Virus genome (UHGV): UHGV-0209617
Origin: a virus
Length of the DNA stretch: 64,000 nucleotides
Reading direction: 5' to 3' (one strand)
The notes under the pieces were generated by a model that was not told the origin of the DNA, did no database searches, and worked only from the letters and a program-made list of their open reading frames with translations. The position numbers and the translations under genes are program-made. Positions 12,415 to 64,000 of this stretch are shown here, in pieces. Within the stretch, counting starts at the first letter, position 1. Every line of letters starts with the position of its first letter.

Positions 12415-12443
12415 TTGTAATTACAGCTTAAATATGCTAAAAT
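12415..12443 (+). promoter_or_regulatory. Predicted sigma-A promoter of the RM operon
   Basis: -35 TTGTAA (12415-12420), 17 nt spacer, extended -10 TGcTAAAAT (12435-12443). Confidence 0.5.
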
Positions 12444-12688
12444 ATAAGATGAAAGACTATATGGAAATGGAGGAACTACAGTTGAGCGAAATGAAAAGAA
12501 AAATGCCTATGGAACATTTGAATATTGGTGAGTTCAACCGTGGGCAATCTTCAAAACTAATCCGTAACTTGGTGGAAAAAGATAATGCTGCATTTATACA
12601 AAAAAATGGGAAGCCAATAGCCGTTGTTATCTCCTATGAACGATACGAGAGACTGCTTGAGTCTGGCATTGATATCAATGAGTTCTGA
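12434..12688 (+). CDS. Phd/YefM-like small protein (antitoxin fold), putative regulator; start codon uncertain
   Basis: IGEFNRGQSSKLIRNLVEKDNAAFIQKNGKPIAVVISYERYERLLE matches the Phd/YefM pattern; no toxin gene follows; the listed ATG at 12434 overlaps the predicted -10, so the real start is probably TTG 12482 (GGAGG 8 nt upstream) or ATG 12491. Confidence 0.55.
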   Translation: MLKYKMKDYMEMEELQLSEMKRKMPMEHLNIGEFNRGQSSKLIRNLVEKDNAAFIQKNGKPIAVVISYERYERLLESGIDINEF

Positions 12689-12720
12689 GTATTCAAAACA
12701 TGATTAAGGAGGTAACGGAG

Positions 12721-14355
12721 ATGGTTGCGAAAAATTATGGTGTTGTTTACACACCGAATAGACTGGCTGAGTTCGCAGCAGAACTTTTATATAGAGAGGC
12801 AGCAGAAACTAATACAGAAATAAAGTCGGTATTGGATCCTGCGTGTGGCGAATGCGCATTGCTATGTGCTGCAAAGAAATATTTGAATGGTAATGTGAAA
12901 TATTTGGGAATTGATGTCGATAAAGAAGCAATAATGAATGTTGAGGATGATTTTGAAATTCTTTATAATGATTCAATTCTTCCGCGAAATGTAAAAAAAC
13001 AGACGGCAGAATATTGGAAGAGCAAGATGCCAGTAATATCTGCTATAATTGCAAATCCACCGTGGAGTTCCGAAAAAATATATGTGCGAGAAGAATTGCA
13101 GAGTGCCGGTTTCTCGTTGACCACAGGACAATATGATAGCTTTGTGCTATTTATTGAGTTGGCATATAATCTGCTTGATGATGGAGGATACTTTTCGTTT
13201 ATTATCCCCGATTCGTTATTTGATGCACAAAACGAAAAACTAAGAAGATTTTTGACTGAAAAGATGCAAATCAAAGTGATTGCCAGACTTGGAGAGAAGA
13301 TTTTTGAAGAAGTGAATAGAGCAACTACTGTTATTGTTTGCAGAAAAGAAAAGCCAGTCAAAGATTCTGTCACCCACTGTTTCAGACTTACTACGGAAGA
13401 AAGAAGAAAGTTTTTGAATTCGAATCAGAGTTTGTTAAACTTTTACAACGAAGATGTGCATGATGTGTTGCAGGGGCGATTTGCTGAAAACGCTGCCTGT
13501 AACTTTGACGTTGATACGCGCACTGATGAAGAGGCATTGTTGGCTAAAATTAAGAAGCAGTCTATAAGTTGGGAGGATATATTCATTTTTGGTCGAGGTG
13601 TTGAGATATCCAAAACAGGAAAGGTCGTATTTTGTCCTTCGTGTGGTTATGCCCAAGGGTATAAAAAATCACAAATGGCTGAAGGAAAAAAAGAATGTAC
13701 GAACTGTGGCAGTGAGATATCGGTTACTACGGCAAGTGTTCAAAATGTTATTTCACAAAGTCAAACGCCACAGACTGTTCAGATATATGTTGGAGAGAAT
13801 GTTCGGAGATATGGAATAACAGGAGAATGCTATATCAAACCCAACATTCCCGGAATCAATTATAAAAATCGTGCGATGTACAACCCACCAAAACTGTTGG
13901 TGAGAAAGACTGGACTTGGAATATATGCATCGATTGATTATACGGGAAGCATGACAAGTCAGGCTGTATATATTTTGAAATTTAAAAACAGTCAACATAA
14001 GGCTCCGTTGGAATATTATCTGGCATTGCTTAACTCACGAGTGGTCTACTATTTTTATTTGAAAGTATATGGAGAAAATGAATGGAAGTCCCATCCGTAC
14101 TTTACGAAACAGATTATTTATTCTCTGCCTATTAGAGAATATGAGGATAGTGAGTTAGATAAACAGATCATTAAAGTGGCATCGGAATTGGCGCATAAAT
14201 ATGAATATGTCAAGGATGTTCAGCTTGAGAAGTTGGTAATGAAAAAGTATGGTCTGTCAGAGACCGAAAGCAATATGGTTTATGGTGAGATGAATCGTCT
14301 GCCTGACTTGAGTGCGATTAACAATATGAAAGTTGAGGTGGAAGCGAATGTATAG
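12721..14355 (+). CDS. N6-adenine DNA methyltransferase, gamma class (Eco57I-like), with TaqI-like C-terminal target-recognition region and internal C4 zinc ribbon
   Basis: ATG 12721 with AAGGAGG 8 nt upstream; motifs GVVYTP, LDPACGECALL (AdoMet binding), IIANPPWSS (NPPW catalytic); internal CPSCGY..CTNCG. Confidence 0.85.
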   Translation: MVAKNYGVVYTPNRLAEFAAELLYREAAETNTEIKSVLDPACGECALLCAAKKYLNGNVKYLGIDVDKEAIMNVEDDFEILYNDSILPRNVKKQTAEYWKSKMPVISAIIANPPWSSEKIYVREELQSAGFSLTTGQYDSFVLFIELAYNLLDDGGYFSFIIPDSLFDAQNEKLRRFLTEKMQIKVIARLGEKIFEEVNRATTVIVCRKEKPVKDSVTHCFRLTTEERRKFLNSNQSLLNFYNEDVHDVLQGRFAENAACNFDVDTRTDEEALLAKIKKQSISWEDIFIFGRGVEISKTGKVVFCPSCGYAQGYKKSQMAEGKKECTNCGSEISVTTASVQNVISQSQTPQTVQIYVGENVRRYGITGECYIKPNIPGINYKNRAMYNPPKLLVRKTGLGIYASIDYTGSMTSQAVYILKFKNSQHKAPLEYYLALLNSRVVYYFYLKVYGENEWKSHPYFTKQIIYSLPIREYEDSELDKQIIKVASELAHKYEYVKDVQLEKLVMKKYGLSETESNMVYGEMNRLPDLSAINNMKVEVEANV

Positions 14356-15406
14356 ATATATAGGAAACAAATCAAAGCTGACTCCATACATTCTTGATAG
14401 GGTGGAACAGCTTATTGGAAAAACAGGAATTGTTGCTGACATTATGGCTGGAACAGGAACTGTGGCATTAGAATTGAGAAAAGCAGGTTATTCGGTTATC
14501 GCATCTGATGTAATGACCTATTCGTACCATCATTTGATGGTTAATCTTTGCTTAGATTCAGCTCCTTCTTTTTCTGGGCTTGTGAATCATGGAGCAATAG
14601 GCAAGAATGAGGTGGATGCATATGGTGCAATCCTGACTTATTTAAATTGCATTGAACCCAAAGAAGGTTTTTTCTTCAAGGAATTTTCTCCGGGTGGAAC
14701 ACCGCAGAATGGTTGCGACCCGAGAAAATATTTCACTACGGAAAATGCAAAGAAAATTGATGCGATTAGAGAAAAAATAAATGAGTGGATTGATAATGGA
14801 TATGTGAGCAAAGCTGAAGAATCGCTTTTAAAACATACTCTTATTATGGCAGTAAACGAGGTTGCCAATATATCTGGAACTTACGGATATTTTTTGGCTG
14901 ATTTCAAAAAGAATGCCAATGCACAGATTGATTTAAAACCTGTGGAATTTTGTTCTGTGAATTCAACTGGTCACATGGTAAAATTGGGATTTGCTGAAAA
15001 TTTAGCTGCAACAATTACAGTTGATTTGTGCTACATCGACCCTCCGTATATGAAGAGACAGTATGCTGCGAATTATCATATTCTGGAAACCATTGCACGA
15101 GGAGATTTCCCTGATGCTGTTGGTAAAAGTGGCTTGCGTGACTGGTGGGAGCAGCACTCTAAATTGTGTACCAAAACACGAGGATTACAATCGTTTGAAA
15201 AGATATTAGGTGATATGCATTGCCCGAAATTTCTGATTAGCTACAGTGAGGATGGTTTGTTTACGCTGGGGCAATTAGAAGAATGTTTTAGCAAGTTTGG
15301 AACTGTTGACGTTCAAGAAATTGATTACAATCGATTTAGAAGCAATGATAGCAAGTTGCCTAAAAAACTGAAGGAATATTTGATTTCTATAGAAAGGCAG
15401 GTATAA
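14348..15406 (+). CDS. DNA adenine methyltransferase, Dam-like (D12 class)
   Basis: ATG 14348 with AGGTGG upstream, overlapping the preceding stop by 8 nt; motifs RYIGNKSKL and DPPY. Confidence 0.8.
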   Translation: MYRYIGNKSKLTPYILDRVEQLIGKTGIVADIMAGTGTVALELRKAGYSVIASDVMTYSYHHLMVNLCLDSAPSFSGLVNHGAIGKNEVDAYGAILTYLNCIEPKEGFFFKEFSPGGTPQNGCDPRKYFTTENAKKIDAIREKINEWIDNGYVSKAEESLLKHTLIMAVNEVANISGTYGYFLADFKKNANAQIDLKPVEFCSVNSTGHMVKLGFAENLAATITVDLCYIDPPYMKRQYAANYHILETIARGDFPDAVGKSGLRDWWEQHSKLCTKTRGLQSFEKILGDMHCPKFLISYSEDGLFTLGQLEECFSKFGTVDVQEIDYNRFRSNDSKLPKKLKEYLISIERQV

Positions 15407-15410
15407 GTGA

Positions 15411-17081
15411 ATGGAGTGCATTGAAAGAATATTTTACAGAAAGATTAATCCTTCTGATTTCAAAAAGTTGTATGATATTGACAAACCAGAAGGTGGCGGT
15501 GGTCAGACATACTTGGAAGCCGCTGGTATTTCAAATGAAAAAATCGTTGATTTCCTTTCCTATGCGGAGGTTACAAACAGTCCTTTGCCAGATGAAACAA
15601 GGTCTGTTTATACATTCAATGCCTATGTTTTGGGCGATTCAAAGGGTAAATGTTCGTTTGTAGAATTTGCACCTCGCAAAGGAAGAAATAACTATCGTAT
15701 AAGCCGTCAGAACATGAAATATAAACATCCGGCATGGAGTTTGGATAATGGATTTCCCGAACCATCAAAAGGTGATGATGGCGAATACACATCTGCAGGC
15801 GATTTTGTGGGAATCATTGATAATCTTGTTATTCTTATCATAAGAACTACAAATCGGCGTTATTATGCAGGTTTTGTAAATATAGCGACAATGCCAGAGA
15901 ACTGGCCACACAATATTGGCTTAGAGGGCATTTTTAGTGGTGAACGCAGAGATGTACTAAAAATGGATGCGTATAAACTACAGTTTGTTAATGATGCCTG
16001 TAATCCATTCGGTGATTATGTCCCAACAATCGAAGAATGTAATCGAGCGACTACTGGTTGCAATGTGCTTTTGTACGGAGTTCCCGGAGCAGGAAAGAGT
16101 TGGACAATTGAACACGAATATTGTGCCGATGAAGGGTGTATGGAGCGATTGGTTTTCCATCCGGATTATATGTATTCGGATTTCGTTGGACAAATTTTGC
16201 CTGTAGTAAGGGACGATGACAAGGTTCGTTATGAGTTTACGCCGGGTCCGTTTACCAAATTATTAAAAAAAGCATATTGGAATACAGAACAGTCTTTTTA
16301 CCTTATAATAGAAGAAATAAATCGTGGTAATGCACCAGCGATATTCGGTGAAATATTTCAGCTTTTGGATAGAAAAGATGAAGACGAAATAGATGAAAAT
16401 AGGGAGATTCTCTACAAAAAAGGCACAAGTGAGTATGGAATAACAAATGCCAATATTGCACGAATCGTTTATGGCGATGAAAACCATAAGGTTCGAATTC
16501 CTGCAAATATGTCTATTTTGGGTACAATGAATACTTCTGACCAAAATGTTTTTACATTAGACACAGCATTTCAGAGAAGATGGATTATGAGAATGATTCC
16601 GAATTCATTTGATAACCATAAGTTCGCAGACAAGAAGATTTTGGATACTGATATTTCCTGGAGACAGTTCTGTGAAGCAATTAATGAGGAAATTTTGCGT
16701 AGAAACAACATCACATCTTCTGAGGATAAGCGACTTGGGGCATATTTTATCTCGGCTTCGGATTTGGAGATGAAACCAATCACAGACGGGATGAGCGAAA
16801 AAGAAAAAATCCAAGTGGAGCATAGCAACAGCAGATTTGCAGAAAAAGTATTGAAATATTTATGGGATGATGCTTTCAAATTTTCCCATCAAGATACATT
16901 TAACACAAGACAGTTTGGTAGTCTTGAAAAAGTTATCGAAGGCTTTATGAATCCTGCCAAGCCTAAAAATGAGCGTTTTCGTGTATTCAATGAGAACCTT
17001 CGTAAAATGATTTTGGATGGAGTAACAGCAGAATCAAACGAGGTTTCTGATGATGACAGCGAAGGCTCACAGGAATCTTAA
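15411..17081 (+). CDS. McrB-like GTPase subunit (LlaJI R1-like) with N-terminal DNA-recognition domain
   Basis: Walker A LLYGVPGAGKSW; McrB signature IIEEINRGNAPAIFGEIFQLLDR; TMNTSDQNVFTLDTAFQRRW; starts 4 nt after the second methyltransferase. Confidence 0.85.
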   Translation: MECIERIFYRKINPSDFKKLYDIDKPEGGGGQTYLEAAGISNEKIVDFLSYAEVTNSPLPDETRSVYTFNAYVLGDSKGKCSFVEFAPRKGRNNYRISRQNMKYKHPAWSLDNGFPEPSKGDDGEYTSAGDFVGIIDNLVILIIRTTNRRYYAGFVNIATMPENWPHNIGLEGIFSGERRDVLKMDAYKLQFVNDACNPFGDYVPTIEECNRATTGCNVLLYGVPGAGKSWTIEHEYCADEGCMERLVFHPDYMYSDFVGQILPVVRDDDKVRYEFTPGPFTKLLKKAYWNTEQSFYLIIEEINRGNAPAIFGEIFQLLDRKDEDEIDENREILYKKGTSEYGITNANIARIVYGDENHKVRIPANMSILGTMNTSDQNVFTLDTAFQRRWIMRMIPNSFDNHKFADKKILDTDISWRQFCEAINEEILRRNNITSSEDKRLGAYFISASDLEMKPITDGMSEKEKIQVEHSNSRFAEKVLKYLWDDAFKFSHQDTFNTRQFGSLEKVIEGFMNPAKPKNERFRVFNENLRKMILDGVTAESNEVSDDDSEGSQES

Positions 17082-17097
17082 AGCGAGGTGAGCGACA

Positions 17098-18378
17098 TTG
17101 GATTTAGGCTTAAACTTAAAAGTTAAATGTCATGTGAATAAAAATGGTGATGGCGATAGGTTTGTCGGGATTAAGGCTGATGCTAATCAAGCAATGGTCT
17201 ATTTTCCAATGGGGTATCGCCTGCCAGACAATGAAGAAGATATTAGGGATGATATTCTAAAATTGATTTCTGTATTAGCTGAGTTTACGGATTCAAAAGA
17301 CAAGGTATTGGCTATGCAGAAATTTGAAGCACCACAGTCTGTGAATTTTCCAATCAATGCCTATATGAATATTATCCGATACTATTTGGAACAACGTTCA
17401 TATTACACAGAAAAGGATCCTATTCTAAAGACGAGTGACAGAGGAAAAATCGACTTTGCAGCATCTTTGCGTAGAAATGTTAGCTTTTTTCAAGAAGATG
17501 GAACTCCGTTTTTTGATAAATATACAGTAAAAGGGTCAACTCCTAATGATAAAAATTTAATAACTATGATTCACAAATACTGTGTGCATGAAAGTTTTGC
17601 TCAGATGGGTTGGCTGTTTATGCCGGATGTCCCACAAGATCCACATATTGAACGAAACATTCCGCTTTTCCTCAGTGTACTGAAGAAAAAATTGGCAGTC
17701 ACGCATCTTGAAAAGGATATTCTGCTATTTGAAGCAATGATTTCTATGCTGGAATATTTGGATGAGAAAAGTGACGATAAACAATACTATTTTGGAACAG
17801 ATAGATTTGAATATGTGTGGGAAAAACTGATAGATGCAGTGTTTGGCATAAAAGAAAAGAATGATTATTTTCCACGAACCTCTTGGAAACTAAACTATGG
17901 TGACCAACGAAGAAATTATGCATTAGAGCCGGACACCATAATGCTTTGTAATGGAAAAATCTATGTCATTGATGCAAAGTATTATAGATACGGTGTAACC
18001 GGTACACCTTCGCATTTGCCGGAATCATCATCTATCAACAAGCAGATTACATATGGTGAGTACATATATAATCATAAGAAATTTAAGGATGTATATGGTG
18101 ATGATGTTCCTGTGTATAACGCATTCCTTATGCCGTATAACAAACAGGATAATCCATTTCATATCAATGAGTATTTCGCCAATATTGGTGAGGCTGATAG
18201 TGACTGGAAATATGGCAATCATAATTATGAACGGGTGCAAGGAATTGTAGTTGATATTCGTTTCTTGATGAACAATTACTATGGTTCGCACAAGAGTAAA
18301 ATTATTAAGATGGCGAAGCTCATCGAGGAAGCCCTGCAGGAAAATGCAGATACGCTTCCAGAAGAAAAGACTGAATAA
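17098..18378 (+). CDS. McrC-like PD-(D/E)xK nuclease subunit (LlaJI R2-like)
   Basis: TTG start with GAGGTG 7 nt upstream, 16 nt after the McrB-like gene; IYVIDAKYY matches the McrC-type nuclease motif. Confidence 0.7.
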   Translation: MDLGLNLKVKCHVNKNGDGDRFVGIKADANQAMVYFPMGYRLPDNEEDIRDDILKLISVLAEFTDSKDKVLAMQKFEAPQSVNFPINAYMNIIRYYLEQRSYYTEKDPILKTSDRGKIDFAASLRRNVSFFQEDGTPFFDKYTVKGSTPNDKNLITMIHKYCVHESFAQMGWLFMPDVPQDPHIERNIPLFLSVLKKKLAVTHLEKDILLFEAMISMLEYLDEKSDDKQYYFGTDRFEYVWEKLIDAVFGIKEKNDYFPRTSWKLNYGDQRRNYALEPDTIMLCNGKIYVIDAKYYRYGVTGTPSHLPESSSINKQITYGEYIYNHKKFKDVYGDDVPVYNAFLMPYNKQDNPFHINEYFANIGEADSDWKYGNHNYERVQGIVVDIRFLMNNYYGSHKSKIIKMAKLIEEALQENADTLPEEKTE

Positions 18379-18418
18379 AAAATCCGCAAGCAGTGATTAT
18401 GCTGTTTGCGGATTTTTT
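18377..18418. terminator. Bidirectional intrinsic terminator between convergent genes
   Basis: AAAAAATCCGCAAGCAG..CTGTTTGCGGATTTTTT, about 15 bp stem with one mismatch, A-run and T-run on either side. Confidence 0.6.
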
Positions 18419-19601
18419 ATTTGCCCTTTTGAACTTTGATGCGATGGGAACGTTGATTATTTGCGTTTCTACAGTTACTGCAACAATATTTATTTCTACT
18501 ATTGGATGTCTTTACTAAGAAATATTTATGGCAAGAAGGATTGGCACACTTTCTATATATTTCAGATCCGGGTTTCATGTAGAAAATAGAAAAATATAAT
18601 GCAGAAAGCAATGATGGTGCCTTCCACGACGGTTCCAGTGAATTGGGACTGTAGAAAGGTTTTATACTTCTGGTATTATGATTTATTTCCCCACTTAAAA
18701 CGAGTCGTGCGATAAGAGTAGCAGCCTCTTTTAATGGACTGTTAAATTTGCTGAAATCTGGACTACTATAGTATTCAATGCCGCCCTCGAAAGTTACAGC
18801 TTTTATTACACCAACAGAATGCATATAGTGAAACAGGAATTCAACCATTAGTCGGAGCTTCTTGGATTGAATATTGTTATTCTTGTAAGCAATAGTAACC
18901 TGGCGATACAGCGTATCATTAATTCCAGGATAATCGTATGTAAATGTTTCTCCGTTTGAAATATCATCATATTCATCAGCATTTAATTCATATGAAGGAG
19001 CATAAATCATGTCTTTTACGGTAATAGATTCTGTTTCAGAGGATTGCTGTAGTGAATCGATAGAGGCTTGATTTCTGATGCTATCATGAAATGGATGCCG
19101 ATAGGTTGAATAAGTAATTCGTGCAGTGCCATTAAGCGTAACTTGTGTCCCAAGAAGCAAATACAAAGTTAAATGTAGAATCTGTTCATAATCAAGTGAT
19201 GGTTTTTCCACTGCGGCCATAAGGAGAACTGTAGCCTTTATTCGATTCAAGACTTCTACAAGCGCTACTATATCAATTTCCGTTCCTTCGGGCGAAATAG
19301 GAAGTAGATAACCATGTTCCTCGAAAAAACCAAGGACCTTTTTTACATTGGTTGCCGGAAGCGATATCAGAGAACCGAGAACATTTTTATTTTGAAGTGA
19401 ACCGTGTGGAGTCGTTAAACATAAACCTCGGCTTCCGCTAAAGGCATAATTTATAATTTCATCATTCACGGGATAGACTGTTAATATTTTATGCGCCTGC
19501 CCGTCCGTCTTTAAGACTTCTTCTATTCTAAATGTACATTTTTTGCAACTCAAAGAAAAATAATCGTTGCTAAGATTGAAAAAATTGTCTAACTCAGTCA
19601 T
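18417..19601 (-). CDS. Hypothetical protein with C-terminal CGNR-type zinc finger
   Basis: 394 aa; C-terminus CANPSCHKYFLVKTSNSRNKYCCSNCRNANNQRSHR fits the CGNR zinc-finger pattern; N-terminal 330 aa unrecognised. Confidence 0.5.
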   Translation of the reverse strand: MTELDNFFNLSNDYFSLSCKKCTFRIEEVLKTDGQAHKILTVYPVNDEIINYAFSGSRGLCLTTPHGSLQNKNVLGSLISLPATNVKKVLGFFEEHGYLLPISPEGTEIDIVALVEVLNRIKATVLLMAAVEKPSLDYEQILHLTLYLLLGTQVTLNGTARITYSTYRHPFHDSIRNQASIDSLQQSSETESITVKDMIYAPSYELNADEYDDISNGETFTYDYPGINDTLYRQVTIAYKNNNIQSKKLRLMVEFLFHYMHSVGVIKAVTFEGGIEYYSSPDFSKFNSPLKEAATLIARLVLSGEINHNTRSIKPFYSPNSLEPSWKAPSLLSALYFSIFYMKPGSEIYRKCANPSCHKYFLVKTSNSRNKYCCSNCRNANNQRSHRIKVQKGK

Positions 19602-55674: not shown

Positions 55675-58029
55675 ATGATAAAGTTTTACGATAGCATGGG
55701 AGCCGCCCAGGGCATATCCGTCCTGTCGGACCTGGTGGATGCCTGTGACTTCTGGCAAAATGGCAAAGAGATTAAGTCGGGCAGTATTGCAAGAAGCTCA
55801 ACGGACAGCCTTATTTATGCTGAGTGCATTGCAGGAGGCATAACAGGTGATGCAGAACCCATCTGGGGGATAACAGATGGAACAGAGATAAACGATGGCA
55901 GCGTTAAATGGAAGGTGCATGATTTAAGAAAGGCACTTACTGCAGAAACGACTGACAGGTTCTCAGTTCCAAGGAAAATAAACGGCATAGAATTTGATGG
56001 CAGCAAGGATATAATCCTTCCGGCAGATTCCGTAGACGAGTCCACCTACATTGCAAAGGGACTGAAGGTTGGCGGTTTCTCTGGGAAGGATTTATTTATT
56101 TCCAGCGGTACGGCAAAGGTCAATGGCCGTACTGTAAACTTTGATGGTGGCAGCATTGAATTAGGGGAAAGGGAAACAGCCCTTGTTCATGTCACGGCAG
56201 AGGGGAAGCTGGGCAAGCGAAAGGCGGCATATCCAACGGAGTGGATTGATGACAATACCATTGGCTTTTGGATTTTCAACAAGACAATAGCTGGTGATGC
56301 CGTGCCTAACATTGCTGTTGGAAAGTCAGCTGTAGCACAGAAAAATGACTTCATTCCATACGGTGGCATTACATCGGTTGATGGTTGGGCGGATTATTCC
56401 CTGCAGACTGATGTGGCAACAGGTTATTTTGAGCTTCAGAATAACCTTGGCTTTATGACGGGTGTTGTGCCATTTGAGTACAACATCCTTATAACACCAG
56501 ATAAGATTGATGGCTCTACAGACTTCATTTTCAATTATGCAGGAAATGTTACGACCATATACATCAACAGCAACGGCCTTCTTTACTGCGGTGGTCAGAA
56601 CACTGGCTATATCTGCGAGACAGGGAGAACCTTCTTCCTGACCTATCAGTATGATGGCAGGATTGCCTATGTGTATATTGACGGAAGGCTTGTATTCCAG
56701 GTTACAGTAAATATCTCTCTTTCTCTGAATACCAGCCAGAACACAAGAATTGGCTGTGCCTATGATAAGTCGGATATGTTTCCGGCCACATTCCATTTCG
56801 TGGAGATCAGAAAAGCAATCCGTAAGCCGGAGGAGATTGCACATATATCAAATGAACTGCTTTTGCCATGCTTCTATGAAAAGGGCAGTTCTACTTATCC
56901 TGTCATTCCATCTGAGTATACCAATTATGCCGAGTGGAAATTCGATGATGAGACACCGGATACTTTGAAGGAAACCAACGGTATCAATAGCGGTGTGGTC
57001 GGCAGTACTGTTACTCCCACACAGGAAGAAAGCCAGCTTGGACTTGGCAAGGCTATGCGTTTTACGGGAGCCAATACCTGCTATATGAGTATCGGCACCA
57101 TTACAATCCCAGAGGAGTTTACCATCATAGCTGTAGCTAATCCATTCCAGCTCACTGGACTGAACCGAATCTTTGGCAACAAGATTGGTGCAAGCCAAAC
57201 CTTCATGTTCTGCTCCTCACAGGATGGAACGCTTGGAGTGTCATTTTACACGGGAAATCAGAACAGCAACTCATGGATTAACTCTGGCCTTAAGCCGAAT
57301 GTGGGAATGGAAAACTTCATTGCTCTTAGGACTACCGCCAAGAATCACTATTTTAGAGTGAACAGGGAAACGGCAGTAAGGCAAAATGCTTATTGGAGAA
57401 AGCCGGTATCTACAGAATTTGCCATAGGTGCCTGCTATGACAATAACTATCCATTCAAGGGTACATTAGCCTATCTGCTCTTTGTGCCTAGAGCCTTGAC
57501 TGATGCAGAAATAGAGGAAATGTATGACTGCCTTATGGTAAAGGGCAGGAAGAACATCATTGATGATATGGTTCCCGCAGATGCCGCAGTTGTTGCCATG
57601 GCAAGGGCTGATGGGGAGTCTGTCATTGAGTATAACGATGCTGACTACAAGTTCGGCAGGCGAGAAGGCGCGGTTGGCGGCAATAGGAAGGTGTTCCTTG
57701 GCTATAAGTATTTCTCTGGCACATCGGTATTATCATGGGATAACCCATTCGGGACAAGCAGAGTGAAACGATACTTCACATGGGCATCTGATGCCAAGGG
57801 TACCAATGAGATTGAAGCCATGAAGATGGTCTATGTGTATAACACTGGCTGGGGAGGTCTGTGGCCATTCTCGGATTCTGACACAGGAAACGATGATATG
57901 AAGATTACCTGTTATGTTAGCACCGTCTATGGAGGTGTTGCTCTATACAACGGAGCATGGAAATCCTCTGGCTATATTGGCTGCTATGTGGAGGTAATGG
58001 AAGATTATACGGGGGTTGATGGCAGATGA
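55675..58029 (+). CDS. Tail fibre / receptor-binding protein (putative)
   Basis: 784 aa; last large gene of the tail module. Confidence 0.5.
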   Translation: MIKFYDSMGAAQGISVLSDLVDACDFWQNGKEIKSGSIARSSTDSLIYAECIAGGITGDAEPIWGITDGTEINDGSVKWKVHDLRKALTAETTDRFSVPRKINGIEFDGSKDIILPADSVDESTYIAKGLKVGGFSGKDLFISSGTAKVNGRTVNFDGGSIELGERETALVHVTAEGKLGKRKAAYPTEWIDDNTIGFWIFNKTIAGDAVPNIAVGKSAVAQKNDFIPYGGITSVDGWADYSLQTDVATGYFELQNNLGFMTGVVPFEYNILITPDKIDGSTDFIFNYAGNVTTIYINSNGLLYCGGQNTGYICETGRTFFLTYQYDGRIAYVYIDGRLVFQVTVNISLSLNTSQNTRIGCAYDKSDMFPATFHFVEIRKAIRKPEEIAHISNELLLPCFYEKGSSTYPVIPSEYTNYAEWKFDDETPDTLKETNGINSGVVGSTVTPTQEESQLGLGKAMRFTGANTCYMSIGTITIPEEFTIIAVANPFQLTGLNRIFGNKIGASQTFMFCSSQDGTLGVSFYTGNQNSNSWINSGLKPNVGMENFIALRTTAKNHYFRVNRETAVRQNAYWRKPVSTEFAIGACYDNNYPFKGTLAYLLFVPRALTDAEIEEMYDCLMVKGRKNIIDDMVPADAAVVAMARADGESVIEYNDADYKFGRREGAVGGNRKVFLGYKYFSGTSVLSWDNPFGTSRVKRYFTWASDAKGTNEIEAMKMVYVYNTGWGGLWPFSDSDTGNDDMKITCYVSTVYGGVALYNGAWKSSGYIGCYVEVMEDYTGVDGR

Positions 58030-58259
58030 TGTATTACAACAGAAAAACAGGAGACTTGAGCAGTGTTCCACCATGGGGCGCTGCTTTTTTACTGCCCAAA
58101 ATCAGGAAGGCAAGATTTCCAGATTGGGAAGAAGTGGATGATGGCTTTGTTCCAAAGAATAAGAAGGTTGAGCTATCTGAGCCTGAAACCAGCAAGGCTG
58201 ACATCGAGCTTGCTGAGGCTTTAATAGAAATCTACAGCATATTGGAGGAGAGAAAATGA
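58026..58259 (+). CDS. Hypothetical small phage protein
   Basis: 77 aa, overlapping starts/stops with neighbours. Confidence 0.3.
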   Translation: MMYYNRKTGDLSSVPPWGAAFLLPKIRKARFPDWEEVDDGFVPKNKKVELSEPETSKADIELAEALIEIYSILEERK

Positions 58260-58414
58260 AGATTTACAAGTACAAGGCAAAGGCCTACGCAGTGCTGGTA
58301 AAGGCAGGAAGGTACATACTGTCTGAAGATCAGAGGGAGAACAAGAAGCAGGAGCTTGTACCAGAGGAGTATGCAGATCTTGTGGCAGAGATTCTTCTTG
58401 GAGGCGATAGCTGA
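58256..58414 (+). CDS. XkdX-like small phage protein (52 aa, not in ORF track)
   Basis: ATG 58256 overlaps the preceding stop; MKIYKYKAKAYAVLVKAGRYILSEDQRENKKQELVPEEYADLVAEILLGGDS; stop at 58412-58414 overlaps the next start. Confidence 0.4.
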   Translation: MKIYKYKAKAYAVLVKAGRYILSEDQRENKKQELVPEEYADLVAEILLGGDS

Positions 58415-58782
58415 TGGATGAGAGGGATGTAGTCATGCTTTACATCCAGGTTGGTGGTGCGTTACTTGTCAGTGCCATCACAGGCGTAATGGGTGCTCTG
58501 GTACGTGAGGTATGGGCGCTTAGAAAGGAACGACAGGAAAAAGCCATAGAGGAAGAAGCTGAACGGGGAAAACGCAGAAAGGCATTAAAGGCACTCTTGA
58601 AGTTTCAGCTTCATCGCTCCTGGCAGTATCACACCAGCAATGGCTTCATGCCAGCCAACGAGATGAGCCTTCAGACAGAGCTGTATGAGGCTTATCACGA
58701 TATGGGAGGTAACGGCACCGGGACAAAGCTCTATAACGAGATGATGGAGCTGCCACATATCAAGCACACGGAGGTAAAGTAA
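58414..58782 (+). CDS. Hypothetical membrane protein (one predicted transmembrane helix), lysis-module associated
   Basis: Hydrophobic N-terminus LYIQVGGALLVSAITGVMGALV; precedes the holin. Confidence 0.35.
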   Translation: MDERDVVMLYIQVGGALLVSAITGVMGALVREVWALRKERQEKAIEEEAERGKRRKALKALLKFQLHRSWQYHTSNGFMPANEMSLQTELYEAYHDMGGNGTGTKLYNEMMELPHIKHTEVK

Positions 58783-59087
58783 TGAAGAACTTAATAGTAC
58801 AGTTTTCTGCATGGGCGCAGGCCAACTGGCTTGCGCTTGTTATTTTTATGATTTTTTCCATGATGGCATTCCTGTGCATGGTCATGGGAAGCTGGCTTTA
58901 TGGCTACTGGTCAAATGCTCTCTGCGGCACGAAGTTTGAACTTGGTAGCTGCTGGCAGGGAATCACTGTTGTTATCACGGGCCTTGGCGGTGTTGCAGCA
59001 CTGGCCAAGGCTGCATGGACCAAGTATTCAACGGACAGCCAGTATAACAGCATGATGGGGAGTCATCCATACGAAAGGGGTAAGTGA
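58782..59087 (+). CDS. Holin (putative)
   Basis: 101 aa with 2-3 hydrophobic helices; immediately upstream of and overlapping the endolysin start. Confidence 0.5.
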   Translation: MKNLIVQFSAWAQANWLALVIFMIFSMMAFLCMVMGSWLYGYWSNALCGTKFELGSCWQGITVVITGLGGVAALAKAAWTKYSTDSQYNSMMGSHPYERGK

Positions 59088-59659
59088 TTATGATTAAGGG
59101 TATTGATGTATCGGAGAACAACGGCACTGTAGATTGGCAGGCAGTAAAGAATGCCGGGATTGAGTTTGCTATTGTAAGAAGCTCCTATGGTAAGACGGGA
59201 GTGGATGAGAAGTTCCTGGAAAATGTAAATGGTGCTCATGCAGTGGGGCTGAAGGTTGGTGCTTACCATTATGGCTATGGCCTGACTCCGGCTGATGCAG
59301 TGCTTGAAGCAAGGAACTGCCGTGAGGTAATTGATGAGGCAGGAGTGCTTCTGGAGCTTCCTGTTTTCTATGACATGGAAGATGCTGATGGCTATAAAGA
59401 AAGACACGGATTTTGGTTTGACCCAGAGAATGCCACAGGTATCTGCAGGGCATTCCTGGATAACATTGGCCTGAACTGTGGTGTATACGCATCATACAGC
59501 TGGCTTTGTGATTTGATTGACTGGCGCAGTCTCGGCTGCTCAGTCTGGAACGCAGAATGGGGAGGTAGCGATGATATTGAAGGATATATGTGGCAGTTTA
59601 CGGAAAAGCTTTATATCTCTGGTAAGCAGTTTGATGGAAACTATCTCTACAACTGGTAA
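59084..59659 (+). CDS. Endolysin, glycoside hydrolase family 25 muramidase
   Basis: N-terminal KGIDVSENNGTVDWQAVKNAGIEFAIVRSSYGKTGVDEKF and GAYHYG match the GH25 pattern. Confidence 0.8.
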   Translation: MIMIKGIDVSENNGTVDWQAVKNAGIEFAIVRSSYGKTGVDEKFLENVNGAHAVGLKVGAYHYGYGLTPADAVLEARNCREVIDEAGVLLELPVFYDMEDADGYKERHGFWFDPENATGICRAFLDNIGLNCGVYASYSWLCDLIDWRSLGCSVWNAEWGGSDDIEGYMWQFTEKLYISGKQFDGNYLYNW

Positions 59660-59673
59660 GGCGGTGATGGGGC

Positions 59674-60093
59674 ATGAGAAAATCATTCTGGTTTGTGCTG
59701 CTGTTATTGCTCTTGTGTGTGCCGCAGCTTTCCTTTGCTGCAGAGAGGACATACCAAGTGACGGAGACAGAGCTGACGAGGTTAGAACAGAACTTGACGG
59801 AGCTATCCGAAATGAACAGCAAGCAATCAATGAACTTAGAACAGCAGAAGATACAGCTTCAGAACTCGGATTTGCAGTTGAAGCAGGCCGAAGAGAAGTA
59901 CAGTCTGCTATCCAGTCAAATGAAGAACTTGGAGAAGGAAATGCTAGAGCAGCAGGACTCATTAGAGAATGCCAGGAAATCCTTCGAACAGTTCGCCAAA
60001 GAGGAACAATTGAAGAGAGATAAGCTGAAGCGTGAAAAGAATATAGGATACTGGCTTGCAGGGATACTAGCTGTAGTATGTATTGCCAGATAA
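59674..60093 (+). CDS. Signal-peptide coiled-coil protein with C-terminal transmembrane anchor
   Basis: MRKSFWFVLLLLLLCVPQLSFA signal peptide; Gln/Glu/Lys-rich coiled coil; C-terminal IGYWLAGILAVVCIA. Confidence 0.4.
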   Translation: MRKSFWFVLLLLLLCVPQLSFAAERTYQVTETELTRLEQNLTELSEMNSKQSMNLEQQKIQLQNSDLQLKQAEEKYSLLSSQMKNLEKEMLEQQDSLENARKSFEQFAKEEQLKRDKLKREKNIGYWLAGILAVVCIAR

Positions 60094-60100
60094 GTGAAAA

Positions 60101-60140
60101 GCCCGATGTGGAGAAAAAATTTCTCTGCATCGGGCTTTTT
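60101..60140 (+). terminator. Intrinsic terminator after lysis module
   Basis: GCCCGATG..CATCGGGC hairpin followed by TTTTT. Confidence 0.6.
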
Positions 60141-60285
60141 CAGTTATTGGTCATATACATAACGAGTAGCAAACGGCGCTAATAAACGTGCGTATATAAA
60201 TTATAAAATAAGCACGAATGTTAAAATTATCTTTACAACTGTGCTTATTTAATTTATAATATAAGCACGGTTGGAGGTGATTGCC

Positions 60286-60867
60286 ATGAATGACATTGAA
60301 AAGCTTGTTGATGAGTCAGGAATGATTACAACTAGAGATATAGTGAAAAATAATCAGTCAAAAGTAGAATTTTACAATTACCTGAGAAAAAATGATTTTG
60401 AACAAGTATCGCGTGGTATATATGCTTCTAAGGATGCGTGGGTAGACCCATTATTGATTGCGCATATGAGATGTCCTAAAGCGGTGATCTCTCATGATGT
60501 GGCACTTCATTATTATGGCTTGGTTGATAGAGAGCCTTCAGCTCCAACGCTTACTATTTATTCTGGATACAACACAAGCAGGTTAAAAGAAGCAGGGTAC
60601 AAGGTGTTTTTCGTGAAGAAGGAATACCTTGATGCTGGCAAAGAAGAGGTTGTAAATTTTGATGGCAACATCATTCCTATGTATAACCTTGAAAGAACGA
60701 TGTGTGACCTTGTCAGAAACAGAAGCAGCTTTGAGATTCAAGATTTCAATGCAGCTATAAAAGCGTATGCCAGAAAAAAGGAAAAGAATCTTACAAGGCT
60801 ATTTGAATATGCGAAAATGCTTAGGGTGGAAAAATTGATGCGGTCATATATGGAGGTGCTTTTGTAA
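60286..60867 (+). CDS. abiEi: AbiEi-like antitoxin/transcriptional regulator
   Basis: ATG 60286 with GGAGGTGA 5 nt upstream; ~190 aa directly upstream of a nucleotidyltransferase-fold toxin gene; called from size, position and fold resemblance. Confidence 0.65.
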   Translation: MNDIEKLVDESGMITTRDIVKNNQSKVEFYNYLRKNDFEQVSRGIYASKDAWVDPLLIAHMRCPKAVISHDVALHYYGLVDREPSAPTLTIYSGYNTSRLKEAGYKVFFVKKEYLDAGKEEVVNFDGNIIPMYNLERTMCDLVRNRSSFEIQDFNAAIKAYARKKEKNLTRLFEYAKMLRVEKLMRSYMEVLL

Positions 60868-61721
60868 TGATCTTATCAGCTGCACAGGCAAGAGGCAGGA
60901 TTAAGAATATTGTGGCAAAAAATGGTGCGGACCCAAGACTGCTTATGAGAATTTATATGATGGAGAGATTTTTGGAACGAGTATCCCTTTCTGCATACAA
61001 GGATAATTTCATCATTAAGGGCGGAATGCTTATAACATCATTGGTTGGTATTTCCATGCGGTCAACTATGGATATTGACACAACTGTAAAAGGCCAGGAT
61101 GTAAGCATGGAAAATGCACAGCGTATTGTTAAAGAAATTGCTGACATTCAGATTGATGATGGGGTTTCTTTTGTGATTAAAGATGTAGAAAACATAATGG
61201 ATGAGATGGAATATCCAGGAATCAAATTTCACTTGGAAGTGTTATTAGACAAAATGGTTACGCCAATAAAGATTGATGTTTCTACGGGCGATGCAATTAC
61301 ACCCAGAGCGATTGAATATAATTACAAGCTTATGCTTGAAGATAGAGAAATCGGGCTGTGGAGCTATAATCTGGAAACAATCCTTGGGGAAAAATTACAG
61401 ACGATACTTGTACGTGAACGTGCAAACACCAGAATGAGAGATTTCTATGATATATGTGTATTGGTAGAAATGTATGACAGTAAGATAAATACTGTCAATT
61501 TCAAAGCAGCATATGAGGCGACCTGTAGAAAAAGAGGGTCATTACACTTATTTGGTAATGAAGGAAAAATACTGGATATAATAGCTGGTGAAAGTAAAAT
61601 GATTGATAGATGGACAAATTATCAGAAGAAGTTTTCTTATGCATCTGATATCAGTTTTGAGAAAGCTATTCAGTGTGCAAAGGGGTTAATTTCATTCTTG
61701 AAAAATAGTACCGGAAAATAA
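60867..61721 (+). CDS. abiEii: AbiEii-like nucleotidyltransferase toxin
   Basis: 284 aa; resembles AbiEii/AbiGii as remembered; start overlaps the AbiEi stop. Confidence 0.7.
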   Translation: MILSAAQARGRIKNIVAKNGADPRLLMRIYMMERFLERVSLSAYKDNFIIKGGMLITSLVGISMRSTMDIDTTVKGQDVSMENAQRIVKEIADIQIDDGVSFVIKDVENIMDEMEYPGIKFHLEVLLDKMVTPIKIDVSTGDAITPRAIEYNYKLMLEDREIGLWSYNLETILGEKLQTILVRERANTRMRDFYDICVLVEMYDSKINTVNFKAAYEATCRKRGSLHLFGNEGKILDIIAGESKMIDRWTNYQKKFSYASDISFEKAIQCAKGLISFLKNSTGK

Positions 61722-61754
61722 TATGTCAGCTTAATAGTATATGGAAATGTACGT

Positions 61755-61793
61755 CCCTATGTGGAACTTGAGGTTCTGCATAGGGTATTTTTT
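61755..61793 (+). terminator. Intrinsic terminator after AbiEii
   Basis: CCCTATG..CATAGGG hairpin followed by TATTTTTT. Confidence 0.55.
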
Positions 61794-61949
61794 GTTATCG
61801 CTGGTTCTAAAAATGGTTCTTGTTGTCCTTGTACTGTTGAGGTGAAGAATCATGACGGATTTCCGTTCAAAGAGTGCATTTCTGTCATGGGACTGTTAAA
61901 GGGGTTCGATTTGCCCTGATTTGCCGCATATAAGTAGGAGGGATGCATC

Positions 61950-62327
61950 ATGACAGAAGTAGAGAAGAAAAGAATAAAGGAGCTTCATTATCAGGGGCTG
62001 GGATATCGGAAGATTGCTGCCGAACTTGGCATGTCCCCTAATACTGTGAAATATGTAACCAAGAATCTGGTAGCTACGGATAATCATACCTGCAGGAACT
62101 GCGGCATCAAAGTTTTACAGACAGCAGGACGCAAGGAGAAGAAGTTCTGTTCAGATAAATGCCGTATGGATTGGTGGAACAGCCATCTCGATACTGTTAA
62201 TCGCAAGGGATATAAGACCTTTACCTGTAAATGCTGCAGTAAGGAATTCATGGCTTATGCCAGGACAGGCAGGAAATACTGCAGCCGGGAATGTTATTTC
62301 AAGGCTAGATATGGAGGTGCAAGATGA
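61950..62327 (+). CDS. HTH (sigma region 4-like) plus Cys-rich zinc-finger regulator of recombination module
   Basis: N-terminal KRIKELHYQGLGYRKIAAELGMSPNTVKY; C-terminal cysteine pairs CRNCG, CSDKC, CKCC, CSREC. Confidence 0.5.
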   Translation: MTEVEKKRIKELHYQGLGYRKIAAELGMSPNTVKYVTKNLVATDNHTCRNCGIKVLQTAGRKEKKFCSDKCRMDWWNSHLDTVNRKGYKTFTCKCCSKEFMAYARTGRKYCSRECYFKARYGGAR

Positions 62328-62515
62328 GTACGCCGTTGAATGAAAAGTACACACTTAGTATAAAGGAATCCGCCAAGTATTTCGGTATTGGCATGAAAAG
62401 GCTGCGGCGGCTTGCAGAAGAACATATGGACACCTTTGCTATCCGCTGTGGCAACAAGTATCTCATCATCCGCACTGAGTTTGAAGCCTTTCTGAAGGAT
62501 TCAGAAGAAATATAG
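62324..62515 (+). CDS. xis: Excisionase-like HTH protein
   Basis: 63 aa; LSIKESAKYFGIGMKRLRRLAEE is a MerR/Xis-type HTH; directly upstream of the integrase. Confidence 0.5.
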   Translation: MSTPLNEKYTLSIKESAKYFGIGMKRLRRLAEEHMDTFAIRCGNKYLIIRTEFEAFLKDSEEI

Positions 62516-62583
62516 CTTATATGCCAAATAGTAGTTGAATAATATCGCAAACAGAGTGATATATAGTGTCGGAGGTGATGAGC

Positions 62584-62808
62584 ATGCAGAAATCAGATCT
62601 TGGGGAACGGGAATACCTTAGCAAGAAGTATACTGCCGTCTTCTTCGGACTCAGTCCCAGGCGGCTTGAGCGATTCCTCAAAGCAGATGACTATGATTTT
62701 GTTGTGTATTATAAGAAAAGAACACTGATATTAAGGGAGGCCTTCAACAGATATCTCTGGAGGAATCCTGATGTAAGGGAGATGTTGAAACGTGGCAAGA
62801 CGAGGTGA
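62584..62808 (+). CDS. Second excisionase-like HTH protein
   Basis: ATG 62584 with GGAGG 8 nt upstream; YTAVFFGLSPRRLERFLK; 3' end overlaps the integrase start. Confidence 0.45.
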   Translation: MQKSDLGEREYLSKKYTAVFFGLSPRRLERFLKADDYDFVVYYKKRTLILREAFNRYLWRNPDVREMLKRGKTR

Positions 62809-64000
62809 AGTAAGAAGGGATTCAAGGAACAGGCTGTTAAGGATAGGTGAATCCCAGCGTAAAGATGGCAAGTACATGTTCAAATACCATGTGGATGGCA
62901 GACCGTATTTCGTCACCAGCTGGAGACTGCTGCCTTCAGATAGGCAGCCAAAAGGTACAAAGCCTACCCTTTCACTGAGGGAATTGGAAAAGAAGGTAGG
63001 AAGGGAAATCGACCTGCAGATGAGCCTTGAACTCAGGAACTGCACGGTTAAGGATTTGGTTGAGCGGTATTTGGCTACCAGGATTAATGCAAAGCCGAAT
63101 ACCAAGATGGGGTATAATACTGTAAAGAATGTACTGGAAAGTGAGCCCTTTTATCATAGGAAGATAAAAACAATCAAGGTATCTGATGCAAAGATATTCC
63201 TCATCAAGTTGCAGGAAAATGGCAGGAAGGCCAGCACGGTGAAATGCATCAGAGGGGTTCTCCGCCCGGCTTTTCAGATGGCTGTAGATGATGATATGCT
63301 GGTCAAGAATCCTTTTGCTTTCGAGCTGGCAGGTGTCCTGGTAAATGACTCAGTCACAAGGGAGGCTGTCAGCAGGAGGGAAATGAAAAAGTTCTTGCAG
63401 TTTGTCAGGAACGATGATTGCTACTGCAAATACTATGAGGCAGTACATATACTGTTCCATACGGGAATGCGAATATCTGAATTCTGCGGTCTGACGATAA
63501 ATGACCTTGATATGGAGAACAGAATCATAGATATAAACCATCAGCTGGTGCGTGTGGGAATGAAGCTGATAATACAGACCACAAAGACCAACGCAGGCAC
63601 CAGAAGGATTCCGATGTCTGAGGATGTATATGAAATGTTCAAGAGCATATTGGCTAACAGGCCAACAGGCATAGATGAGAAAGCCGTTGATGGGTATAAG
63701 GGGTTCCTCTACCTTGATAATGCCGGACTGCCACTTGTGGCAATGCACTGGTCAAACAGGTTCAGGCATATGGTCGGGCGCTACAATGACATTTACAAAG
63801 AACAGATGCCTAAAATCACTCCTCACGTCTGCCGCCATACCTACTGCAGCAACATGGCAAAATCGGGAATGCATCCAAAGATCCTGCAGTACCTTATGGG
63901 GCATTCGGACATTGGTGTGACGCTCAATACATATACCCACTTAGGGCTTGAGGACGCCCAGGGCGAGATGGACAGACTGAAGGATGCCCAACAGGAGATT
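62792..64000 (+). CDS. int: Tyrosine recombinase/integrase, Tn916-family-like (3' end beyond window)
   Basis: Open frame from GTG 62792 to the window edge; N-terminus RRDSRNRLLRIGESQRKDGKYMFKY resembles Tn916 Int as recalled; catalytic region HVCRHTY and LMGHSDIGVTLNTYTHL. Confidence 0.8.
   Translation, partial: MARRGEVRRDSRNRLLRIGESQRKDGKYMFKYHVDGRPYFVTSWRLLPSDRQPKGTKPTLSLRELEKKVGREIDLQMSLELRNCTVKDLVERYLATRINAKPNTKMGYNTVKNVLESEPFYHRKIKTIKVSDAKIFLIKLQENGRKASTVKCIRGVLRPAFQMAVDDDMLVKNPFAFELAGVLVNDSVTREAVSRREMKKFLQFVRNDDCYCKYYEAVHILFHTGMRISEFCGLTINDLDMENRIIDINHQLVRVGMKLIIQTTKTNAGTRRIPMSEDVYEMFKSILANRPTGIDEKAVDGYKGFLYLDNAGLPLVAMHWSNRFRHMVGRYNDIYKEQMPKITPHVCRHTYCSNMAKSGMHPKILQYLMGHSDIGVTLNTYTHLGLEDAQGEMDRLKDAQQEI

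Follow-up and report, generated by a model that had tools for sequence, protein, structure and literature searches.

A probable AbiE toxin-antitoxin operon with duplicated candidate operators near the right end of a temperate gut prophage

We analysed a 64,000-nucleotide stretch of viral DNA (UHGV-0209617; hereafter the window) and propose, with a probability of roughly 85%, that positions 60286 to 61721 hold a complete and functional-looking AbiE toxin-antitoxin/abortive-infection operon. We read it as an autonomous moron of a temperate, siphovirus-like prophage of Lachnospiraceae type, close to the right end of that prophage. The proposal draws on profile and structure matches of the two proteins, on catalytic and regulatory residues that are kept among relatives, on the promoter and terminators that frame the genes, and on a pair of palindromes that are candidate binding sites for the antitoxin.

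The gene pair and its family

The first-pass annotation of this DNA had described a two-gene AbiE-like pair, and both open reading frames were found exactly where it had placed them. The first, abiEi (60286 to 60867, plus strand), begins with the ATG at 60286 and ends with the TAA at 60865-60867. It is preceded by a Shine-Dalgarno sequence, GGAGG, at 60273-60277, and its 193-residue product is the predicted antitoxin and autorepressor, with an N-terminal winged helix-turn-helix (HTH) domain and a C-terminal antitoxin domain. The second, abiEii (60867 to 61721, plus strand), has its ATG at 60867, its TAA at 61719-61721 and its own GGAGG at 60852-60856, and encodes a predicted toxin of 284 residues, a DUF1814 nucleotidyltransferase. 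The two genes share one base, in the TAATG at 60865-60869, and are translationally coupled. The layout read from the DNA is bicistronic, with overlapping genes, one promoter and one terminator, and every open reading frame on the opposite strand within the abiE region encodes 64 amino acids or fewer. The same two genes are called in the public copy of the contig, L003, a 119-kb gut-metagenome scaffold in ENA that is identical to the window across the 13,134 bases compared.

AbiE systems are defined by an AbiEi/AbiEii pair, that is, a COG5340 antitoxin with a DUF1814/COG2253 toxin. Residues 34-269 of AbiEii matched the Pfam family AbiEii (PF08843) with E = 2.8e-37 and 129.4 bits, where the gathering score is 22.5 bits, and covered profile positions 1-237 of 238; 60867-61721 is, therefore, a strong match to the AbiEii nucleotidyltransferase family. 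The PADLOC models gave 2.5e-93 for AbiEii and 6.6e-63 for AbiEi (residues 3-192), and the assignment made in the first-pass annotation is thus borne out by profile search for both members. In Pfam, AbiEi had only an N-terminal match to AbiEi_4, which lies below threshold (E = 0.0019; 18.7 bits versus 25). No NCBIfam model matched either protein, and PHROGs held no family for either. Both proteins also matched solved structures from Streptococcus agalactiae, those of AbiEi (6Y8Q) and AbiEi:AbiEii (9HLO). AbiEii residues 20-277 matched chain 9HLO_B (E = 6e-42, 33% identity), and AbiEi residues 11-192 matched 6Y8Q and 9HLO_A (E = 1.3e-18, 29% identity), the alignment extending over residues 14-194 of the 6Y8Q crystal structure. 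In every related locus examined, the AbiEi gene lies directly upstream of the AbiEii gene. All of the sequence-level features that define AbiE are present in the pair.

In S. agalactiae AbiEii, the motif I glycines, R63, D67 and D69 of motif II, K173 and R180 of motif III, and D192 of motif IV are required for toxicity (Dy et al. 2014, PMC3985639). The corresponding pattern is hGG-x15-DhD with a motif II arginine, K...R for motif III and +DxxD for motif IV, and the catalytic motifs of AbiEii are KGG at 51-53, R65-S-T67-M-D69-I-D71, K176...R183 and R191-D-F-Y-D195. Mapping through the structure alignments showed that the toxicity-essential residues all have equivalents here, the aligned set being G52, G53, R65, T67, D69, D71, K176, R183, D195 and R223. 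The last of these is the counterpart of S. agalactiae R220, which lies in the nucleotide pocket (10.64898/2026.01.19.700257). Among 99 related loci drawn from genome and viral collections, these functional positions are invariant, save for one Q at R65. Two further features concern regulation of the toxin. T67 aligns with S. agalactiae T65, the residue that is auto-phosphorylated upon AbiEi binding (Arrowsmith et al. 2026 preprint, 10.64898/2026.01.19.700257); all 99 loci have T at this position. The AbiEi loop D81-R82-E83-P84 aligns with the S. agalactiae loop D85-E86-I87, which is required for full antitoxicity (10.64898/2026.01.19.700257), and it takes the form D/E-R-E-P/Y throughout the 99 loci. 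Judged from dN/dS values against relatives (0.04-0.12 for abiEi and 0.09-0.25 for abiEii), both genes are under purifying selection.

The resemblance to the S. agalactiae system extends beyond single residues. The gene order is the same, the products are alike in size (193 and 284 residues here, 195-196 and 287 residues in the solved chains), and the genes overlap in both, by 1 nt here and 4 nt there. Both have the essential toxin motifs, the phospho-acceptor threonine and an acidic loop in the antitoxin, the loop reading D-E-I-P there and D-R-E-P here. The alignments are near full length, but the toxins are only 33% identical and the antitoxins 29%, and the carriage on a prophage is a feature of the present cassette. 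The Mycobacterium tuberculosis MenAT systems (MenT1 and MenT3 with MenA) share the DUF1814 nucleotidyltransferase fold family and are far more distant, chromosomal, and different in tRNA and NTP preferences; S. agalactiae AbiEii itself is about 16-17% identical to MenT1 and MenT3 (10.64898/2026.01.19.700257). AbiEii relatives were found in 16 deposited phage records, from Mycoplasma, Streptococcus, Listeria and human-faecal phages, none more than 43% identical, and in 22 IMG/VR contigs, where the full-length relatives are at most 59% identical. Surveys also list AbiE among prophage-borne defence systems (PMC10023795). Carriage of AbiE by phages and prophages, then, has precedent, and the pair is ordinary for its family.

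Terminators, prophage context and moron character

Intrinsic terminators lie on both sides of the pair, as had been noted in the first-pass annotation. The left boundary, at 60097-60139 on the plus strand, ends the transcript of the lysis region. It has 20-nt arms that are 90% complementary, followed by TTTTT, and folds at −34.2 kcal/mol (z = −9.0), with none of 200 shuffled sequences folding as well. The right boundary, at 61755-61795 on the plus strand, ends the abiE operon with a 14-bp stem, a 3-nt loop and a tail of TATTTTTTGT; the hairpin (61755-61785) with this tail folds at −19.9 kcal/mol (z = −5.1).

The placement between a lysis cassette and a recombination module near the prophage end is likewise confirmed by the flanking genes. 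Upstream lies a lysis region with a GH25 endolysin gene at 59084-59659 (Pfam, 9.2e-23; PHROG endolysin, 5e-34). Also upstream are tail genes, for a GpJ-like protein of 1230 residues and a 784-residue fibre, and genes for small membrane proteins and a 139-residue protein with a signal peptide and coiled coil. Downstream, the recombination module comprises an HTH/zinc-ribbon gene (61950-62327), a Tn916-type xis gene (62324-62515; 8.9e-13), a small open reading frame and a Tn916-type tyrosine integrase gene, which starts at about 62792 and runs past the end of the window. In L003, host genes come directly after the integrase gene; their products are a low-molecular-weight phosphatase, an oxaloacetate-decarboxylase-like protein, an aminotransferase, UvrD and CorA. 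These housekeeping genes mark the right end of the prophage and, therefore, place the abiE pair within its last 4 kb. At the other side, the contig ends about 214 bp before the start of the window. Attachment sites were sought by comparing the 600 bp that follow the integrase gene in L003 with the window, using exact k-mers and blastn with word size 7, and nothing above chance was obtained. The carrier prophage is temperate and siphovirus-like, its host a gut bacterium of Lachnospiraceae type, and it is in Lachnospiraceae MAGs that the cassette has its closest genomic relatives.

The cassette (60185-61721) has a GC content of 36.0%, compared with 46.4% in the structural and lysis region and 45.1% in the recombination module. 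Copies about 80% identical are found in unrelated mobile elements, from which we conclude that the cassette is a horizontally acquired moron. The nucleotide homology to these unrelated contexts runs from 60185, at the distal of the two palindromes described below, to the abiEii stop codon or just before it. One such context (L002) is an island linked to an integrase and containing Mrr, GIY-YIG and helicase genes, and others (L107-L111) contain relaxase, MobC, transposase and resolvase genes and an Abi_2 gene. Searches for near-identical DNA, by megablast of 58000-64000 against deposited phages and by blastn of the abiE pair against plasmids, returned nothing. A sister phage, L001, is 92% identical across the tail and lysis genes and keeps the cassette, with an AbiEii that is 96% identical, and it has three serine recombinase genes in place of xis and int. 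Just upstream of its cassette, L001 has a 2.2-kb insertion with two extra genes, bracketed by two copies of the distal-operator region. The insertion encodes a second AbiEi-family protein, paired with a PD-(D/E)XK-type protein (PADLOC candidate PDC-S26) where AbiE has a nucleotidyltransferase. The attributes of a moron are thus all present, namely, a promoter and terminator of its own, an atypical GC content, occurrence in non-phage contexts, and, in L001, extra genes at the same site and a different recombinase module.

The promoter and its candidate operators

The best promoter in the scanned region is a sigma-70-type site at 60232-60260 on the plus strand, with TTTACA at 60232-60237, a 17-nt spacer and TATAAT at 60255-60260, matching the consensus at 11 of 12 positions. 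The arrangement of −35 box, −10 box and Shine-Dalgarno sequence is kept in relatives. Two palindromes lie in this region, and both are candidate AbiEi-binding sites. The distal palindrome, at 60188-60215, reads GTGCGTAT-N12-ATAAGCAC. The proximal palindrome, at 60236-60273, has the core GTGCTTAT-N12-ATAAGCAC at 60241-60268 and arms that reach 13 nt; it surrounds the −10 box and abuts the −35 box. Together, the two palindromes make up a 29-nt direct repeat with a spacing of 53 bp.

A search for the best 9-nt inverted repeat in the single sequence was non-discriminating in this AT-rich DNA, as shuffled sequences reach 8-9 of 9 matches. We, therefore, relied on uniqueness in the window, positional conservation and covariation of the arms. 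The pattern GTGCNTAT-N12-ATAAGCAC has two matches in the 64-kb window, at 60188-60215 and 60241-60268, where 0.1 would be expected. The 8-mer ATAAGCAC by itself occurs nine times in the window (2.7 expected), and three of the nine are operator arms; the other six copies were considered as extra sites and rejected, being within the range of shuffled sequences. Among 57 distinct upstream regions from relatives, which extend down to about 49% AbiEi identity, the proximal palindrome is at the same distance from the start codon in 56, and a second copy is found 52-54 bp further upstream in 31.

Covariation was examined by treating the palindrome as a "helix" in 43 distinct operator sequences. Symmetric cells made up 90.9% of the total, compared with 83.7% after shuffling and 25-50% when the partner arm was slid. 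Cells with a double change numbered 38, compared with 13.7 ± 2.8 in shuffled sets, and none of 500 shuffles was as high. Six of the 13 positions change on both arms, giving matched pairs such as GTGCTTAT/ATAAGCAC, GTGCTAAT/ATTAGCAC, TTGCTAAT/ATTAGCAA and ATGCTTAT/ATAAGCAT. The sequences were anchored on the inner eight positions, which are biased for this reason; four of the six doubly changing positions are among the outer five, which played no part in the anchoring. At the level of sequence, this pattern marks a symmetric site that binds a protein and co-evolves with it.

The only AbiE operator that has been mapped experimentally offers a comparison. S. agalactiae AbiEi binds the inverted repeats TGTTGCTTTTA-N27-TAAAAGCAACA (PMC3985639). 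In both systems the inverted repeats overlap the promoter before the antitoxin gene, with similar half-site cores, GTGCTTAT here and TTGCTTTT there. The geometry differs in two ways. The S. agalactiae arms are 27 bp apart, whereas the 11-bp arms here are about 8 bp apart, that is, about two helical turns closer; and there are two half-sites there but four here, with the palindrome duplicated 53 bp upstream. This compact, duplicated operator geometry is the sole element of the cassette that we regard as mildly new.

An alternative explanation for the palindromes is that they form RNA or DNA hairpins, such as an attenuator or a recombination site, and are not protein operators. The region treated as RNA folds at −31.9 kcal/mol (z = −6.5), the covariation of the arms would be expected of a hairpin just as much as of an operator, and copies of the distal palindrome are what flank the insertion in L001. 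The position of the promoter, however, speaks against an RNA element. The proximal palindrome has the −10 box in its spacer and the −35 box next to its left arm, and a transcript from this promoter would carry the right arm only; transcription arriving from upstream is stopped by the strong terminator just before the cassette. For these two reasons, an RNA hairpin is unlikely. In addition, Rfam searches of 59500-64000 and of the region after the integrase gene gave only sub-threshold noise, and the layout parallels that of the mapped AbiEi operator, where the half-site TGTTGCTTTTA is similar to CGTGCTTATTT of the present site (PMC3985639). We consider the hairpin explanation as a whole improbable and retain the interpretation of the palindromes as candidate AbiEi operators.

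The arrangement in L001, with a different effector gene beside an AbiEi-family gene and a distal-operator copy at each edge of the insertion, allows a more speculative idea. AbiEi-family regulators and their operators might serve as exchangeable "heads" for different effectors, and the palindromes might double as recombination joints by which cassettes are shuffled at the junction between lysis and integrase genes. We regard this as rather unlikely. If it were true, the dual-operator AbiE of the window would be one of the states that a modular defence hotspot can take, and cross-regulation between cassettes through a shared distal operator would be possible.

Proposed mechanism and role

The mechanism that we propose takes S. 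agalactiae AbiE and M. tuberculosis MenAT as templates, by homology. In MenAT, the toxins modify the tRNA acceptor stem, and the antitoxin induces auto-phosphorylation of a Ser/Thr near motif II (PMC7450476, PMC11375011). By analogy, AbiEii, a nucleotidyltransferase of the pol-beta fold, would add pyrimidine nucleotides to tRNAs and so arrest translation and growth. AbiEi would bind AbiEii, and its conserved DREP loop would induce auto-phosphorylation of T67, switching the toxin off. The winged-HTH domain of AbiEi would bind the palindromes and repress the operon, with the proximal site occluding the −10 box and spacer and the distal site, 53 bp or five helical turns upstream, probably adding cooperativity. 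The lysogen would be expected to express the pair independently of the phage late genes. Infection by a phage, or loss of the prophage, might then upset the balance between AbiEi and AbiEii or the phosphorylation state of the toxin, and the released toxin would abort the infection or penalise the loss of the element. Because identity to the characterised system is only 29-33%, the substrate, meaning which tRNAs and which NTP, may differ here.

The position had also been called typical of superinfection exclusion. The location part of this claim stands, since the pair lies between the lysis genes and the Xis/Int genes at the prophage end, but in its strict sense the term does not apply to AbiE. 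Superinfection exclusion in that sense is the work of a membrane or surface protein that blocks DNA entry. Both proteins here align near full length to soluble, crystallised proteins, and for this reason "abortive infection/toxin-antitoxin" is the proper term.

Phage defence and prophage stabilisation are both plausible as the benefit to the lysogen, and the sequence does not separate them. The precedent for defence is the AbiE of Lactococcus lactis, the founding, plasmid-borne abortive-infection system. As described, it belongs to the same AbiEi/AbiEii family and, like the present pair, is found on a mobile element of a Gram-positive host; it differs in being carried by a plasmid, whereas the present pair is carried by a prophage, and in belonging to a host of a different order. 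The preprint, citing earlier work, credits it with abortive infection against 936-type phages, a real anti-phage phenotype (10.64898/2026.01.19.700257), which argues against the view that such a pair is mainly an addiction module. Under that view, which is compatible with defence, loss or excision of the element would stop AbiEi synthesis, and residual AbiEii would arrest growth and so stabilise the prophage. The cassette does adjoin the excision and integration module and is found on several kinds of mobile element. AbiE systems are also said to stabilise mobile elements such as plasmids. Moreover, S. agalactiae AbiE, the best-studied homologue, gave in E. coli no protection against 32 coliphages (10.64898/2026.01.19.700257), so that defence is not guaranteed for a given homologue. 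On the other hand, AbiEii is reported to be bacteriostatic and reversible (PMC3985639), and post-segregational killing by it would, therefore, be weak. On balance, a role mainly in addiction is possible but doubtful.

A third view would make the cassette a silent or decaying passenger that is no longer active, and the origin of the DNA in a metagenome-assembled contig might be held in its favour. Several findings speak against it. Both open reading frames are intact and have good Shine-Dalgarno sites, the catalytic and regulatory residues are all kept, dN/dS ranges from 0.04 to 0.25 against relatives, and the control elements (promoter, operators, terminators) are likewise intact and conserved. 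We consider this view very improbable and favour a functional-looking AbiE operon.

The present case leaves knowledge of how AbiE works unchanged. What it adds is a well-documented case, from uncultured gut Lachnospiraceae, of a temperate phage with an AbiE moron. A second gain is a clean comparative view of AbiE regulatory DNA, in which a palindrome with covarying arms wraps the promoter and is often duplicated five helical turns upstream, a geometry that differs from that of the sole experimentally mapped AbiE operator. This helps when the defence cargo of prophages in gut metagenomes is to be annotated, and when AbiEi/operator pairs are to be chosen for binding studies.

Insertion at the lysis-abiE junction of a sister phage

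In the sister phage contig L001 (Logan SRR25448135), an additional 2.2 kb (L001 7093-9350) lies at the junction between the lysis genes and the abiE cassette, at a point equivalent to approximately position 60224 of the window, and it is bracketed by copies of the region containing the distal operator, the farther of the two palindromes upstream of abiEi. The inserted DNA encodes a second AbiEi-family protein of 205 aa (PADLOC AbiEi, 1.3e-77), which is followed by a 347-aa protein assigned to PDDEXK_4 and to the PADLOC candidate PDC-S26. In this pair, a nuclease-like partner of the AbiEi-like head takes the place of the nucleotidyltransferase.

On the lysis side of the junction in the window, the final gene of the lysis region (59674-60093) encodes a 139-aa protein with a signal-like N-terminus, a long, coiled-coil-like middle rich in Q, E and K, and a hydrophobic C-terminal tail. 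Searches of Pfam and PHROG with this product returned weak matches alone, to DUF6746 (0.0077) and phrog_5218 (1.9e-4).

Sequences near the left end and beyond the right end of the window

Near the left end of the window, the similarity of a 163-aa ORF (1778-2269) to portal proteins of phages is limited to the N-terminal quarter of these proteins (phrog_12, E = 6.7e-50, covering positions 48-195 of 646). The surrounding ORFs (window 313-8690) gave no match in a PHROG search. The ORF looks like a remnant of another, degraded phage.

Beyond the right end, L003, a longer public copy of the same contig, carries two direct repeats of about 128 nt each (13270-13396 and 13467-13593; 81% identity), which are situated between the integrase stop codon and the first host gene, approximately 200-550 bp past the window. 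The hairpin TTCACCCCA...TGGGGTGAA is present in both. No match to the repeats was found in Rfam, and no counterpart in the window. They might be arm-type sites for the integrase; alternatively, they might represent a repeated host element.

A restriction-modification system to the left of the replication module

The phage replication module starts at about 20036 and encodes sigma-70-r4-like, PDDEXK_1/DUF2800, ssDNA-binding, DNA polymerase A and VapE-like primase proteins. Between it and a restriction-modification system lies a 394-aa gene (18417-19601) that belongs to a function-unknown family (phrog_30403, E = 1.5e-43) and is the sole sizeable minus-strand gene near the left part of the phage. 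It could indicate the site of the lysogeny switch or of the left boundary.

The restriction-modification system itself, of the LlaJI type, occupies 12700-18378, to the left of the replication module. Two of its four genes encode methyltransferases, one N6_Mtase/Eco57I-like and one of the D12 class; the other two encode a McrB-like AAA_5 protein and an RE_LlaJI protein. A small PhdYeFM-like antitoxin gene (approximately 12434-12688) is positioned directly upstream. The system gives the window a second defence locus, besides abiE.
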